Assembly (NCBI GenBank): GCA_001766825.1
Contig: LYOR01000001.1
Span: forward strand, 159,746-223,745
Reading direction: 5' to 3'
DNA from: Candidatus Syntropharchaeum butanivorans
GTDB lineage: Archaea > Halobacteriota > Syntropharchaeia > Syntropharchaeales > Syntropharchaeaceae
Length of the DNA stretch: 64,000 bases
Shown piece by piece: positions 43,992 to 48,487 of this stretch. Under the pieces are notes generated by a model, which saw only the letters and a list, made by a program, of their open reading frames with translations, did not search any database and was not told the DNA's origin. Within the stretch, counting starts at the first letter, position 1. Each line of letters begins with the position of its first letter. Position numbers and translations under genes: made by a program.

Positions 43992-45284
43992 GTGAAGTGG
44001 CTGAATAGAATTCTTGGCAGGAAAGAGCTACCATCCACAGTTGCCTTCGATGAGATAGATGCATGGCTTGAGAGCGCATCCAAATCGTTATTTTGGGATC
44101 TGAGCAGAAATGCCGATAGGTTATATGAAGAGATGAGGGCTGTATCTGAGAGGCTTGAGGAGAGCATCAATATCCTCCAGAACGCTGAGCCAGATGGGAG
44201 CATGCCGGCTCATATCACAAAAATAGGGTTGCAAAACCGTGATAAGATGGTAAAACACCTTCATTCGCTGGGTGAGAAAATCTCAATCCCGACACAGACC
44301 GATTACAGGACGATTTTATCCTTTTATAAGGTGGCGGCATCCAGCATAGAGCTTGTTCTCGGCAAGTTATCGAAAAATATCTACTATGTCCGATCACTAT
44401 TTCCTGATGAGGTCAAAGAGGTTACTTCAGATCTTAATCAATTGAAAACAATCCTTAACCAGCTTGTCACACCAATTAAGGGGAAAGAAAGCCGGATTAT
44501 GAGTTTAGAACAGGCGATAGAGTTAGTGCGAGATATAAAGGATCTAAAATCGCGGATAGACAAGGAGCGGGAGAAAGTTTGCGAGCAGGAGGGGGCGTAT
44601 TCCGCACTCAAAAGGAGAATCGAGATGGAAGGCGAAAGACTTAGAAGGATTGAAGAAGGGGAGGAATGGAAGAGGTTCAAAGAGCTTGAAGGGGAGCTAT
44701 CATCATTAGAAATGGAATTAAACGCGCTGGAATTGGAGATTAACCAGTTGTTTTCCCCAATTAACAAAGCGCTGAACCTCTTGAAGAAGCGGGATGAGGC
44801 CGGGCGATATGCGCTCACTCCCGATGAGAGAAGAGCGATATCTTCAATCCTATCCTCTCCAGTTCAAGCGTTTGATGATGAAGAGATCAGGGGGTATCTT
44901 CTCACTGTAAAGCACATCATCGAGAGGGATGCATCCTTTCTGAAGGATAGAAGGAGGGATAAGACACTGAGATGGATAGATCATCTGCTAAATACCGGGC
45001 TTTCCTCTATAAGGGGGAGGCGTGAGATTTTACGATCAAGAGTTGAAGAGCTAAAAGGTGAGCTCTCGGATCTGACGATACTTGAGGATAGAAAGAAGAT
45101 CGAAGAATCAATTCTCTCAGGTGAGGGGCAGCTCATTCAATTGCAGGAAGGGATAGACCGATCAAAAAGATACCTCGTTTCACTGGAGGAGGAGATCAGA
45201 GAGAGGAAAGAGCTGCTGTTAGAGGCTTTGGAAGGTGTTGCAGGCAGGAAGATTGATGTTAAATTTTGGTTTTTCAGATGCTAA
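43992..45284 (+). CDS. coiled-coil protein of unknown function
   Basis: 430-aa ORF (GTG start). Long heptad-like Glu/Lys/Leu-rich stretches, with no catalytic motif. Confidence 0.5.
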   Translation: MKWLNRILGRKELPSTVAFDEIDAWLESASKSLFWDLSRNADRLYEEMRAVSERLEESINILQNAEPDGSMPAHITKIGLQNRDKMVKHLHSLGEKISIPTQTDYRTILSFYKVAASSIELVLGKLSKNIYYVRSLFPDEVKEVTSDLNQLKTILNQLVTPIKGKESRIMSLEQAIELVRDIKDLKSRIDKEREKVCEQEGAYSALKRRIEMEGERLRRIEEGEEWKRFKELEGELSSLEMELNALELEINQLFSPINKALNLLKKRDEAGRYALTPDERRAISSILSSPVQAFDDEEIRGYLLTVKHIIERDASFLKDRRRDKTLRWIDHLLNTGLSSIRGRREILRSRVEELKGELSDLTILEDRKKIEESILSGEGQLIQLQEGIDRSKRYLVSLEEEIRERKELLLEALEGVAGRKIDVKFWFFRC

Positions 45285-45434: not shown

Positions 45435-45558
45435 ATCTGCGATTTTTTGAAGCTATGCTATAGTTGTAATATGAACAAAATCTTATCAGCCATCACTGAT
45501 CCATTGAAAATACCCCCTTCTGACCCATAGGTACTCATACCATGCCACCAAGATTGAA

Positions 45559-45762
45559 TTGGTGGTCTTGATGGAAGTACCGAAGGAATATATCTCAACT
45601 TTTAATCGTAGAATAGAGAAACAGCTATACAGTGAGCTGAGAAGAGATTACTCATTCCCGCAAGCAGTATGCAGATCTTTATCTGAGCTCTTTACATCCT
45701 ACCTGGATCTGTATTCAGTTCAGAGAGATGAGGGGCAGATAATCTTCCATGCAGCATTATGA
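45559..45762 (+). pseudogene. orphan N-terminal fragment of an IS-associated archaeal protein (DUF1670-like, from memory)
   Basis: 67-aa ORF ending prematurely. Another frame downstream reads GEAIMRYIKDCQLAKL. It sits among other transposase debris, and the family assignment is tentative. Confidence 0.3.
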
Positions 45763-46043
45763 GTACACAGATATAGAAAGAAAGACTGAACACAGTGGAG
45801 AAGCTATCATGCGCTACATCAAGGATTGTCAGTTAGCAAAGCTAACAACCTCCTCAGCGAAGCTGAGTGAGTTGCTCGACTGATTATACTTAGGAGAACT
45901 TTGATTTACCCCTCCCCTCACCGGTTGAACCTAAACCAGACCATCTCATGAATAATAAGTGCCACTGACGCCAGTCTCCTTCTCAATCCCCTCTATCACA
46001 CCTGTTTTTTCCTTTCTGATCCGGAATCTGACGATAGCTTACG

Positions 46044-46307
46044 CTAAGCCGCCTCCCGGTGCCTGATCGTACGAAGATGATATAGATCAAAGGCAAACGC
46101 GGTGAATATCATCTTTACCGCAACCCTTGCTCTGGTTGTGACCCTGGCATGACCTGCACTGAAGACTGTCTTCATCACGGCAAAAGCCCGCTCGATCCGG
46201 GCTCTCTTCTTATTTATCCGCCTGTTTCTAAGCTCATCCCTGATATCCAGGGGATGCCCGCGGGTTGCCCGTTTCATCGTAGGCTTTTCCAAAAGCCCAC
46301 ACGGCAA
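46044..46307 (-). pseudogene. C-terminal fragment of an IS5/IS1182-type DDE transposase
   Basis: RRINKKRARIERAFAVMKTVF...RVTTRARVAVKMIFTAFAFDLYHL matches the conserved C-terminal R-x-x-(I/V)-E-R-x-F block of IS5-family transposases. The N-terminal two thirds are missing, and a hairpin cluster lies at their expected position. Confidence 0.6.
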
Positions 46308-46310
46308 AAT

Positions 46311-46399
46311 GTCCTGCCTTCGGCAGGACGAGTCCGATCGAAGATCGGACGCAGGGGTAGAGGGGATGCAATCCCCCTTATGAGGCGGATGCGCCTCAT
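46311..46399. repeat. cluster of four consecutive perfect stem-loops, forming the left boundary of the low-GC cassette
   Basis: H1 gtcctgcc-ttc-ggcaggac (46311-46329). H2 gtccgatc-gaa-gatcggac (46332-46350). H3 ggggat-gca-atcccc (46362-46376). H4 atgaggcg-gatg-cgcctcat (46380-46399). Confidence 0.85.
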
Positions 46400-46470
46400 C
46401 CAGGAGGATTTTTGATCTGCCTGTTAATTTGATGGGCTCTGGGAGTGGGTGGGTTTTTCAAAGTTCTCGA

Positions 46471-47604
46471 TTAATACACTGTATGCTCCTCTATAACTTC
46501 TTTATAAAGACTTAGGATTTTACTCATGAAAACATCAACGCTAAATAAGTTTTCAACTCGCTTTCTCACTTCCTGCCTCCATGTATCAGGATAAGAGAGA
46601 CTCTCTATAGCCTTTTTGAGAGATGTTGATGATCCGGCCCGAAATACAGCACCATATTCCCCGATGGCTTCTACGGATCCACTATTGCTGCTCACAATAC
46701 ATGGTGTCCCACATGCCATCGATTCAAGAACGGTATAAGGAAACGGATCATAGCGAGAAGGCAATATCGTTGCGATCGCATTGGAATAATAGCGCTTTAG
46801 ATCTTCGTCAGATATATTTGACTTGATCATAATGTTATTTTGCTTTTTACTGAGATCACAGAGTGCTCTGGAATATTTGCTGAGCTTCCCATATTTATAA
46901 ATAGAACTTATAACCACGAACTTCTTATCTTGTAACTTCTTCATCACATCAAACAACTCATAAAACCCCTTTCTCTTATCCAATCGTCCAACGTAGAGAA
47001 AATAATCTCCAGTTGGGTCATCTGTCGTTGGCTTGTATAACTCTGTGTCAATACCGTTGTGGATCACTCTAATCTTATCAGCAGGCACGTTATACTCTGA
47101 TTGCAACTCTCTTTTGATCAGATCTGAAACAGCCACTATCTTCGCCAACTTATCGATCTTTTTTGTCAGCACATTTTTCTCTGAGTTAAGTGCATGATAT
47201 TCGGTCCTCATCTTTTCTAAATTTGTTACATACTTACATTCTGTAGCCGCAACCCCATGGAACGTGATCACAGTCGGCTTCTCTGAAACACTCAGGTAGT
47301 CCACTATATGAACAGTGTTAGAATGGATTAGGTCATAAAGAATCTCAAGCAGTTTTACTTTATCCCTGATATGCTTTCTTGTACGGTAATATCTGATCAC
47401 AGGTAGTATCGTTTCATTCAATCCTCTGATGTGTGGCATATTGAGAAGAAAAGAGAAGAAAGTATTTTTGCCCACTCTCATCGCAGGTCCTTTATGCAAG
47501 ACATCTACGTCCAGATTTTCTTGATTCAGAAAATACTCGGCGTATCTTGTTGACCCAGAGGCTCTTTTAGCAACACTATCCTCGTGAATAAGTAGAATTC
47601 TCAT
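46471..47604 (-). CDS. GT4-family glycosyltransferase (glycosyl transferase group 1)
   Basis: MRILLIHEDS... with the C-terminal ILPSRYDPFPYTVLESMACGTPCIVS (the E-x7-E region of GT4). It is AT-rich relative to its neighbours. The track ORF extends to 47628. Confidence 0.8.
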   Translation of the reverse strand: MRILLIHEDSVAKRASGSTRYAEYFLNQENLDVDVLHKGPAMRVGKNTFFSFLLNMPHIRGLNETILPVIRYYRTRKHIRDKVKLLEILYDLIHSNTVHIVDYLSVSEKPTVITFHGVAATECKYVTNLEKMRTEYHALNSEKNVLTKKIDKLAKIVAVSDLIKRELQSEYNVPADKIRVIHNGIDTELYKPTTDDPTGDYFLYVGRLDKRKGFYELFDVMKKLQDKKFVVISSIYKYGKLSKYSRALCDLSKKQNNIMIKSNISDEDLKRYYSNAIATILPSRYDPFPYTVLESMACGTPCIVSSNSGSVEAIGEYGAVFRAGSSTSLKKAIESLSYPDTWRQEVRKRVENLFSVDVFMSKILSLYKEVIEEHTVY

Positions 47605-47605
47605 C

Positions 47606-47926
47606 TTAGCACCCCTTACATTCCACATTCCAATTCCTACACTCTAAAACACACTTTATATTTCTTTTCTGAAAATGGCCATCAAGATTTTTCAACAGGA
47701 CTTTGTTTTTCATACCAAAAAAATTATCTTCAAAATAGACAAAGTCTTCTCCTTCTTTTCCATAGAACCAGAAATCAAGTCTGCTAAGTCCTTCTCTGGA
47801 AAAATCGATATCCTTCTTTACCTCTATCGTTATGTCAGGGTCTGAGACTTCCCCCGGCTTGAAACCTGGAAATGGGAAGTTTGAGTTCACTTTCACTGCA
47901 TCGTGTATGTTCATACAATAGTTCAT
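47606..47926 (-). CDS. 106-aa hypothetical protein coupled to the glycosyltransferase
   Basis: Its stop lies 1 nt before the GT start. The N-terminus (VKVNSNFPFPGFKPGEVSDPDITIEV) vaguely resembles the N-terminus of HPr-kinase-like proteins from polysaccharide loci. It may be truncated. Confidence 0.4.
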   Translation of the reverse strand: MNYCMNIHDAVKVNSNFPFPGFKPGEVSDPDITIEVKKDIDFSREGLSRLDFWFYGKEGEDFVYFEDNFFGMKNKVLLKNLDGHFQKRNIKCVLECRNWNVECKGC

Positions 47927-48096
47927 CTTGCTAACCCCTATTTCTCCATCTTTTCTCCTCGCCTATTTCATTTAAAGTGCACCTTGATAAGTTTTTCACA
48001 TGCTTCAAATACCTCCCTTGCGGCTGAAATAGTATCTTTGGTATCCTCTTTATCGAAGAACTCATTTCAAAACCCTCAGCACCATCCTTATACATA

Positions 48097-48144
48097 ATGA
48101 GGCGCATCCGCCTCATACACCCAATGTCCTACCTGCGGTAGGGC
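48097..48144. repeat. right boundary repeat: an inverted copy of H4 plus a variant of H1
   Basis: 48097-48117 is the exact reverse complement of 46379-46399 (21 nt). Next comes aatgtcctacc-tgc-ggtagggc (48123-48144), which parallels aatgtcctgcc-ttc-ggcaggac at 46308-46329 and carries a compensatory G-C to A-T change in the stem. Confidence 0.85.
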
Positions 48145-48190
48145 TACGCTTTCGAGCAAGTCTTCCGGCTTTTGGCATGAGATTTTGGCA

Positions 48191-48211
48191 ACGCCTTTTA
48201 TAAAAAGGCGT
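48191..48211. promoter_or_regulatory. 9-bp perfect inverted repeat centred on TTTTATAAAA (TATA-like or operator-like)
   Basis: acgcctttt-ata-aaaaggcgt. It lies about 280 nt upstream of the COG1900 gene start. Confidence 0.3.
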
Positions 48212-48487
48212 AAGCTCTCGAAATCAATCCCTATACCTGTTGTAACAGTCAAAGGGCTTCTCTATCTTACCATTCGTCTAGGGGATGCTTTATCCTGGAT
48301 GTTATCAACTTTATACCCAGGGATTCAGGATAACTCTCAAACCTGCCCTCCCTGTTCCTTCTTTCACCTTTCATGTAAGCCCCCAATTCGCTTCCACTAT
48401 TTAAAGTCGAATTTTTCGGGACTATACAGCCATCTTTCCATCGCAAAAGATATAAGGAGGAAGAGGCATACAGAGGGAGAGGTATCG

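Follow-up and report, generated by a model that had tools for sequence, protein, structure and literature searches.

Hairpin arrays beside a glycosyltransferase gene of Candidatus Syntropharchaeum butanivorans lie inside remnants of two distinct insertion sequences

We analyzed a 64,000-nucleotide stretch of DNA (the window; positions 159,746 to 223,745 of contig LYOR01000001.1, assembly GCA_001766825.1) of the archaeon Candidatus Syntropharchaeum (Syntrophoarchaeum) butanivorans, in which a low-GC gene for a GT4 glycosyltransferase is bordered on both sides by hairpin-rich repeats. Each of these repeats lies within a separate, damaged insertion sequence (IS), an IS5-family derivative on the left (45894-46469) and a chimeric IS481-family remnant on the right (48057-48432). 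Our data point to the glycosyltransferase region as a decayed relic bordered by two unrelated dead IS derivatives and not a mobilized cassette, a reading to which we give a probability of roughly three in four; the mechanism proposed below for the hairpin arrays is graded lower. The initial annotation had taken the repeats for possible ends of an element, similar to a miniature inverted-repeat transposable element (MITE), that mobilized or delimited a foreign cassette. The repeats do lie in non-autonomous, MITE-like mobile DNA, but the hairpin blocks are not element ends, and the idea of a mobilized cassette is not supported: there are two different elements, and the interior between them lies outside both and is truncated. 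The assembly studied (G000; 1.46 Mb, 16 contigs, 48.7% GC) is 79% complete; its contigs are called C1, C2, C3, etc., and contigs used for comparison, mostly metagenomic, carry L labels.

RESULTS

The left repeat lies within an IS5-family derivative

BLAST and a census of terminal repeats identified the left element (576 bp, minus strand) as a non-autonomous, MITE-like deletion derivative of the IS5 family. It has its own inverted ends of the GAGAACTTTGA type at 45894 and 46469; the inverted repeat of the 3' end, GAGAACTTTGATTTACCCC, begins at 45894, and that of the 5' end, GAGAACTTTGAAAAACCCAC when read on the minus strand, finishes at 46469. The same ends are present in an intact IS on metagenome contig L068 and in a near-full copy at C2:246110-247322. 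The whole element is 90% identical over 586 bp to C2:233804-234384, with many partial copies besides, and the census counted about 22 ends of the 3' type and 12 to 17 of the 5' type in the genome. Inside the element, on the minus strand, lies a remnant of the transposase gene (46044-46307; Pfam DDE_Tnp_1, 3.2e-8), confirming the earlier description of an N-terminally incomplete IS5-family fragment next to the left repeat. Homology is limited to the last ~78 residues, the remainder including the N terminus being absent, and in tblastn the remnant is 98.7% identical to residues 97 to 174 of a C-terminal query from the C2 copy.

The hairpin array F-B-A-E-D (46279-46399, plus strand) was delimited by sequence, DNA folding, and the module census described below. 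It consists of module F, a GTAG-tagged GGCTTTT-CC-AAAAGCC (46279-46297); module B, GTCCTGCC-TTC-GGCAGGAC (46311-46329, 8-bp stem); module A, GTCCGATC-GAA-GATCGGAC (46332-46350, 8-bp stem); module E, GGGGAT-GCA-ATCCCC (46362-46376, 6-bp stem, with GTAG at 46357-46360); and module D, ATGAGGCG-GATG-CGCCTCAT (46380-46399, 8-bp stem). The four perfect stem-loops reported for this side, with stems of 8, 8, 6, and 8 bp, are thus borne out by the sequence. Indeed, as single-stranded DNA the block folds into exactly B, A, E, and D (−31 kcal/mol, z = −5.8), and none of 200 shuffled sequences was as stable. Module D is abutted by a 70-nt segment termed alpha (46400-46469, minus strand), which comprises the untranslated 5' end of the IS5 element with the terminal inverted repeat. 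Alpha follows D at about nine loci, and in the near-full copy its equivalent precedes the transposase start (C2:247255-247322).

With its IS ends, small size, multiple copies, and no functional transposase, the left element is a MITE in every respect except a target duplication. Its flanks, TACTTAG| and |GATTAAT, differ; an offset imperfect repeat (GATTATAC / GATTAATAC) is present, and other copies show no consistent duplication.

The right repeat lies within a chimeric IS481-family remnant

The right element (376 bp, minus strand), recognized by BLAST and tblastn, is of different origin. Read on the minus strand, it comprises an IS481-type terminal repeat (48398-48432), decayed codons of an rve transposase (48197-48401), a palindrome P (48191-48211), module C (48126-48144), a linker, module D (48097-48116), and a 40-nt end termed gamma (48057-48096). 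It is 86% identical over 317 bp to C3:153681-153992 and matches other IS481-type copies too, and in tblastn it aligns with residues ~218 to 285 of the IS481-family transposase. Gamma is the end of a third IS type: it recurs five times in the genome, is present in other genera too, and in a congener follows a DDE transposase gene.

The hairpin on this side, AATGTCCTACCTGCGGTAGG (48123-48142), is 85% identical to 46308-46327 and has a fold z of −3.8. Compared with module B, the stem at 48126-48144 has a compensated change from G-C to A-T, an altered loop, and one T·G pair on the plus strand only, as the earlier reading had noted. The right-hand arrangement, a reverse-complemented D followed by the linker and C (48 nt), recurs at three other loci, none of which has a cassette. 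A sub-threshold Rfam match to the Clostridiales-2 small RNA covers module D and gamma (48043-48130, minus strand) and is almost certainly a chance match to the hairpin.

The two elements do not form one mobile unit

It is imaginable that the two hairpin blocks are the ends of one MITE-like or composite element that mobilized the glycosyltransferase cassette. Such an element would explain why a 21-nt inverted repeat (46379-46399 versus 48097-48117) is 100% complementary, exactly as first described, and is accompanied on both sides by a related second hairpin; the low GC content of the interior and the lack of any match to its DNA in 20 relatives fit as well. Nevertheless, we consider this highly improbable. 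In both elements the termini beside the arrays, alpha and gamma, face the glycosyltransferase region, which therefore lies outside both, and the hairpin blocks are not terminal but 40 to 70 nt inside their elements. The outer ends, an IS5 3' end at 45894 and an IS481 end at 48432, are unrelated and incompatible as a pair; a composite transposon has the same IS on both sides and compatible outer ends, whereas here IS5 is on the left and an IS481 chimera is on the right. Direct comparison revealed no clear target duplications at 46308/48144, the boundaries first proposed, nor at 45894/46469, 48057/48432, or 45894/48432, and no consistent target duplication was seen in about 10 other complete IS5-type copies. 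Two different elements that share no ends and show no clear target duplications cannot have carried the interior along as one piece. Furthermore, the module order is not mirrored, being F-B-A-E-D on the left and reverse-complemented D followed by C in direct orientation on the right; the interior holds two truncated genes and a deletion junction; and the 48-nt D/C form occurs elsewhere without a cassette.

The resemblance of the two sides has another source. The apparent inverted repeat is not a matched pair of ends but module D, a near-palindrome with 27 copies in the genome, and the compensated variant on the right is not the partner of the left hairpin but a separate recurrent module, C, with 12 copies. 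A genome-wide search showed that the motifs recur beyond this locus, always in IS-derived DNA. The interior with its flanks was found as a unit solely at this locus, in assemblies of this species.

The interior is a relic of a glycan gene cluster

The interior (46470-48056) has a GC content of 38.6%, clearly below the genome mean (48.75 ± 3.2%) and in the 1.3rd percentile of equal-length windows. In the glycosyltransferase gene, GC at third codon positions is 39.9%, compared to 53.7 ± 6.0% for 603 long open reading frames (ORFs; 3.5th percentile). Both values support the foreign composition suspected initially, and the hand counts of G+C made then (27 and 45 of 90) are exact.

The glycosyltransferase gene (46471-47628, minus strand; 39% GC) is intact and encodes 385 amino acids, or 377 if translation starts at 47604. 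Its assignment to GT4 agrees with the Pfam matches, Glycos_transf_1 (1.5e-25, 90.2 bits, cut-off 26.4) and Glyco_transf_4 (1.7e-16, 61.2 bits, cut-off 28.5). Metagenomes contain orthologues with 96, 88, 80, and 69% identity, and on two informative contigs of 34 to 38% GC these sit within a large glycan cluster in the order NTP-transferase, two B12 radical-SAM genes, a glycosyltransferase of 384 residues, the orthologue of the present gene (377 residues), an ScmC-like gene, NTP_transf_5/Tmk (thymidylate kinase), and PMT_2. None of the remaining cluster genes is found near the glycosyltransferase gene at this locus, and the only counterparts in relatives of the class are generic GT4 paralogues with at most 33% identity. 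The IS5 element ends 1 nt past the stop codon, and the last two codons of the gene are unlike those of the orthologues.

The "coupled 106-aa ORF" of the initial annotation (47606-47926) is not a gene. It consists of the first 84 codons of the ScmC-like gene (47679-47926, minus strand), which has 328 to 340 codons when complete, fused to 22 unrelated codons. Residues 1 to 84 are 87% identical in blastp to the gene downstream of the glycosyltransferase gene on L061 and L058 (87 to 90% in blastn), and the fragment has no Pfam match. At a deletion junction (J; 47669-47678, minus strand), placed by blastn of the interior against L061 and L058 and by the junction sequences, about codon 84 of the ScmC-like gene is joined to the 40 nt upstream of the glycosyltransferase gene, with a short A/G-rich microhomology. 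Frame translation revealed the last 28 codons (...AAREVFEACEKLIKVHFK*) of a third gene (47968-48054, minus strand), cut by gamma, with no similarity to the 3' end of the glycosyltransferase gene, to L058, L059, or L061, or to sequences elsewhere in the genome. With the ScmC-like and third genes truncated and the cluster neighbors gone, the interior represents what is left of a larger surface-glycan cluster of low GC content, namely one intact gene and two stumps.

A tandem duplication, or a small circle that integrated, was also considered as the origin of the interior. The ScmC-like fragment precedes the glycosyltransferase gene here and follows it on L058 and L061, so that the order is circularly permuted, the breakpoints map to adjacent bases (6119|6120 on L058), and junction J has microhomology. 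However, the 127 nt upstream of the ScmC-like start are the tail of another gene and not 3' sequence of the glycosyltransferase gene; the "adjacent" breakpoints are therefore merely gene boundaries. A single internal deletion in a cluster of different gene order needs fewer events. On these grounds the duplication or circle was rejected, and we regard it as very improbable.

A family of hairpin modules confined to IS-derived DNA

The genome census counted 96 copies of modules A to E at 24 loci; with 28 copies of F, 9 of a module G, 11 of a module H, and palindrome P, the total comes to about 150. All 24 array loci adjoin IS5, IS481, or gamma ends and lie within IS-derived repeats, and not one module copy was found outside IS-derived DNA in this species. 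A, B, and C share the architecture GTCC-NNNN-triloop-NNNN-GGAC, while D, E, F, and others are types of their own. The block B-A-E-D (89 nt) recurs about 10 times, a 92-nt form of it at 9 other loci with 0 to 9 substitutions, and D forms a sharp junction with three different termini: alpha (70 nt), beta (113 nt), and gamma (40 nt). Longer module mosaics also exist in the genome.

At C3:218877-219218, tandem 94-nt units (B-A-partial E-F) run into the contig end, and several contigs start or stop in hairpin arrays (see also C2:1-352 and C8:785-876). The arrays are probably a main cause of the fragmented assembly, with contigs breaking at the repeats.

Flanks with less than 42% GC were seen at 7 of the 24 array loci, with 1.7 expected (P ~0.0005). 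This association is consistent with ISs accumulating, and deletions associated with them occurring, along the margins of variable islands of foreign appearance. Several larger islands of low GC content (down to 32%) occur in the genome, for example at C1:225701-250888, some 2 to 27 kb past the end of the window, and many of them are edged by array or IS loci (C1:244832, C4:81987, C6:6580, and C10:4883).

The stems covary. Among 16 distinct GTCC-type variants from three Syntrophoarchaeum genomes, 100% of 128 cells were paired, and double-sided changes occurred in 5 of 8 pairs (22 cells), a level reached in none of 500 shuffles. The variants were partly gathered with palindromic probes, which inflates the paired percentage and leaves the double-sided changes unaffected. 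All seven one-sided changes give G·T (G·U-type) pairs. Six of these pairs form on the D+ strand, on which D reads ATGAGGCG-GATG-, a weak hint at a preferred folded strand.

This covariation raises the question of whether the arrays are structured RNAs, acting as 3'-end stabilizers or insulators, for example of the glycosyltransferase mRNA, whose coding end lies 1 nt from the left element, or as antisense or small RNAs that regulate the transposase. In favor of such a role are the full compensation of the stems across the 16 variants and the G·U-type bias toward the D+ strand, which is the sense strand of the transposase in the IS481 copies. However, a search of Rfam 15 yielded nothing above threshold, the sole match being Clostridiales-2 with 24.7 bits against a gathering threshold of 58.6, and the arrays run in opposite directions with respect to the transposase in IS5 and IS481. 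Several of the triloops are GAA or GCA closed by C-G, known as unusually stable DNA mini-hairpins, which suits a role at the DNA level equally well, and archaeal termination does not need hairpins. We regard an RNA function as improbable.

Arrays replace transposase sequence

Closer inspection of array-bearing and intact copies revealed what the arrays do to their hosts. The intact IS5 on L068 encodes a 314-residue transposase (P0130), and its two parts that flank the array position match C2:246110-247322 at 99.0% and 97.3% identity. Between these flanks, 99 native nt (ERLIETGKD...KKGVIQ) in L068 correspond to 101 nt of D-C-B-F in the C2 copy. The native and array middles are 49.5% identical, which is the level of chance, and the idea that the array is a mutated native segment was therefore rejected. 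Intact IS5 homologues in ANME-1-like relatives keep the same native segment. Likewise, an intact IS481 on L069 (314 residues, P0010) matches C10:3990-5090 save for one segment, in which ~86 nt encoding DDFVYWYNNIRFHESLDTKHYLQTPEDAF are exchanged for ~97 nt of P-B-A-D. As judged from these alignments, the arrays swap out size-matched (~86 to 99 nt) inner pieces of IS5 and IS481 transposase genes. In both of these array-bearing copies the reading frame is broken by stop codons, and they are therefore non-autonomous. A programmed frameshift or an in-frame insertion in the IS5 transposase was also considered and was rejected, with 33 native codons gone and the frames broken.

At the same IS481 site, different copies carry P-B-A-D, P-B-A-E-D, or P-x-C-E-D. 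Two deletions suffice to derive the left element of the window from a copy of the C2 type; both have one endpoint where the array begins or ends, and one shows an ACGATG microhomology. Many loci are chimeric, with ends of different IS families joined via the array, such as an IS5 3' end and an IS481 beta end. Furthermore, metagenome contigs L049, L050, and L051 (Ga0116200_*), from a strain that is 97 to 99% identical, show other IS/array configurations at the same chromosomal sites (C3:76214-82544, C3:88580-89550, C10:1-4028, and C8:42561-49528), and one of these contigs links C10 and C8 of G000. These strain differences indicate recent rearrangement at array-bearing elements.

Spread beyond the genus

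Module D has 27 copies in the genome studied, 2 and 1 in two congeners, and none in 76 other genomes of the class; it is also absent from viral contigs. A scan of ~186,000 species genomes gave scattered single bacterial matches at chance level and one real case, the chromosome of 'Candidatus Methanoperedenaceae archaeon GB37' (GoM-Arc1_E37, LR991653.1; L016), an ethane oxidizer that belongs to a different order. The IS5-family element of the C2 copy recurs there (L016 1400-2700), with D-C-B-F again at the position seen in C2:246110-247322, and an annotated IS481-family transposase of GB37 (P0014) is 88% identical to the query. By sequence comparison, this implies that ISs have been exchanged between alkane-oxidizing archaea of different orders.

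GB37, which is of the Ethanoperedens type, also has AT-rich hairpin pairs of its own, CCTTGATTAC-TCT-GTAATCAAGG with variable partners, inside transposase genes: at two sites of IS5, in an IS630-like element, and in an IS200-like Y1 gene (L016 1975-2100, L041 to L046, and L066 [G079:C1:1161050-1161100]). The IS5 inserts are 45 and 52 nt long and flanked by 5-bp direct repeats, CAGCC and AACAT. Variants of these stems are compensated too (CTGATTAT versus CTGCTTAT).

DISCUSSION

A model for the hairpin arrays

In our model, the arrays are passenger cassettes that would knock out transposase genes by replacing ~86 to 99 nt and thereby make the ISs non-autonomous. Array-bearing copies could then be moved in trans by intact relatives. 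The arrays themselves may be places where slippage and illegitimate recombination are frequent: internal deletions driven by them would shrink an IS to a MITE-like element, recombination between them would yield tandem 94-nt units and chimeras of different IS families, and deletions next to them may include those that trimmed the glycan cluster here. The perfect stems might be kept because hairpin or cruciform formation is selected for, or through template-switch correction within the hairpin. The latter, an established mutational mechanism in quasi-palindromes, can maintain perfect stems without selection.

Several observations weigh against our reading of the locus or of the arrays. For neither element was a target-site duplication found, so the insertion histories are unreadable. 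No empty site or pre-deletion state of the locus was found in a DNA search of 20 relatives or by exact-protein look-ups, synteny being broken in congeners; the look-ups retrieved only the same arrangement in the other assembly, where contigs break at 46469 and inside the left element. Over the 7.2 kb that lead from the HcyBio side to 46469, this second assembly of the species shows 100% identity, with a contig break exactly at the repeat. Within the 79%-complete assembly, tblastn revealed no intact IS5 or IS481 transposase, and mobilization in trans thus rests on the intact copies in metagenomes and another genome. Slippage does not account for the near-equal size of replaced and replacing DNA. 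Finally, the arrays of GB37 and S. butanivorans are 93% identical, compared to 81 to 85% for the IS backbones. This better conservation of the array hints at constraint or at independent array movement. The L068 backbone, 99% identical to that of the C2 copy, has no array, and array presence therefore does not track the phylogeny of the backbone. Either the array was transferred from one IS lineage to another, by gene conversion or by other means, or it disappeared through conversion by intact copies.

There are two further possibilities, both of which we hold to be unlikely, though less so than an RNA role. First, the arrays could be distinct tiny mobile cassettes ("parasites of parasites"), or the footprint of a host process that disables ISs, which enter unrelated IS families (in Syntrophoarchaeum IS5, IS481, and a third DDE family) at defined sites, swap size-matched pieces of ~90 to 100 bp, and ride crippled ISs, also across orders, by a so far undescribed mechanism. 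The AT-rich hairpin pairs in IS5, IS630-like, and IS200-like genes of GB37 would be their analogues. Second, and with similarly low odds, the modules could be miniature elements resembling repetitive extragenic palindromic (REP) sequences or their hairpin-forming doublets (REPINs), mobilized as single-stranded hairpins by a tyrosine enzyme (HUH/Y1, RAYT-like) or another hairpin-specific enzyme; they would prefer to invade, or survive in, ISs, and arrays would grow by insertion beside existing hairpins.

Consistent with the REP-like possibility, the modules are palindromes of 19 to 20 nt in variable order and number, and GTAG stands directly before F in 12 of 14 copies and before C in 6 of 9, and one base upstream of E in 17 of 17, always on the same strand. 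The boundary of D is sharp against three different flanks, and the same array occupies the same site in backbones of 81 to 85% identity while the 99%-identical one is without it. The GB37 hairpin pairs in IS5, IS630-like, and IS200-like transposase genes, two of the inserts with 5-bp direct repeats, point in the same direction. However, modules A, B, and D have no GTAG tag, copies are far fewer than for REPs, none lies outside IS DNA, and the arrays replace native sequence and are not simple insertions. Moreover, no match to Y1 transposases including RAYT (PF01797), TnpB (PF07282), or IS110-type enzymes (PF01548) was found in the genome, an absence that is not proven in a 79%-complete assembly; the PF01797 search did detect its control genomes.

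Comparison with known repeat families

The REP, bacterial interspersed mosaic element (BIME), and REPIN families of bacteria (PMC3733652, PMC3116915, PMC2817692) resemble the present one in having GC-rich palindromes of ~20 nt, mosaic clusters with variable order and orientation, tandem arrays, and compensated stem variants ("sequence types"). REPs have a GTAG (or CGTC) tetranucleotide at one end; GTAG, their hallmark (PMC3733652), stands on three module types here and not on A, B, or D. In contrast, the present family is archaeal, numbers about 150 modules versus hundreds to thousands, lies wholly inside IS derivatives with none extragenic, and replaces coding sequence, and no RAYT gene was found. 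By copy number, extragenic location, and, as far as the 79%-complete assembly shows, a cognate RAYT, the arrays do not qualify as REPs. Nor do they qualify as palindrome-associated elements derived from IS200/IS605, which are marked by TnpA (Y1) and/or TnpB and hairpins at their ends, given that this assembly gave no matches to PF01797 and PF07282.

The left element resembles IS5-family MITEs in having the ends of an autonomous IS5 (314 residues, L068), most of the transposase gone, a size of 576 bp, and about 20 relatives. Unlike in such MITEs, the deleted interior is filled with hairpin modules common to unrelated IS families, there is no clear target duplication, and many copies are chimeric with other IS ends.

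Rickettsia palindromic elements are intragenic palindromic repeats (PMC3733652). Like them, the present modules are small palindromic repeats inside protein-coding genes. The Rickettsia elements insert in frame and their host genes stay functional, whereas the present modules are confined to transposase genes, which lose native codons and have a broken frame. The pneumococcal BOX elements and the small dispersed repeats of cyanobacteria (the latter cited in PMC3116915), which are composed of a few hairpin modules in variable number and are reported to nest in other mobile elements, are a further lead only, their sequences and hosts being unrelated to those of the present family.

In full-text literature searches, these repeats were not found to have been described for Syntrophoarchaeum or Ethanoperedens, and the hairpin arrays are apparently an archaeal repeat family not described before. 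REP/BIME-like modular palindromes have so far been essentially bacterial; here, an archaeon has about 150 of them, all within ISs. The arrays offer a concrete case of the conversion of ISs into non-autonomous MITE-like elements and chimeras, would explain the poor assembly of the genome, and document IS exchange between alkane-oxidizing archaea of different orders. The array family merits a short dedicated study, while the locus itself is ordinary IS debris, the surviving glycosyltransferase gene of a broken glycan cluster hemmed in by dead ISs. For annotation, it should not be recorded as a mobile cassette, nor the 106-aa ORF as a gene.

Neighboring sequences

Upstream of the IS5 derivative, the window contains fragments of a DUF1670-like gene (45503-45830) that are themselves repeated, matching C1:121126-121379 at 98% as well as both ends of contig C7; they are a further repeat family in the same IS "graveyard". 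Beside the EF-2 gene lies a gene for a coiled-coil-like protein of 430 residues (43992-45284) without a Pfam family, which has 64 to 72% DNA identity to counterparts in several genera of the class.

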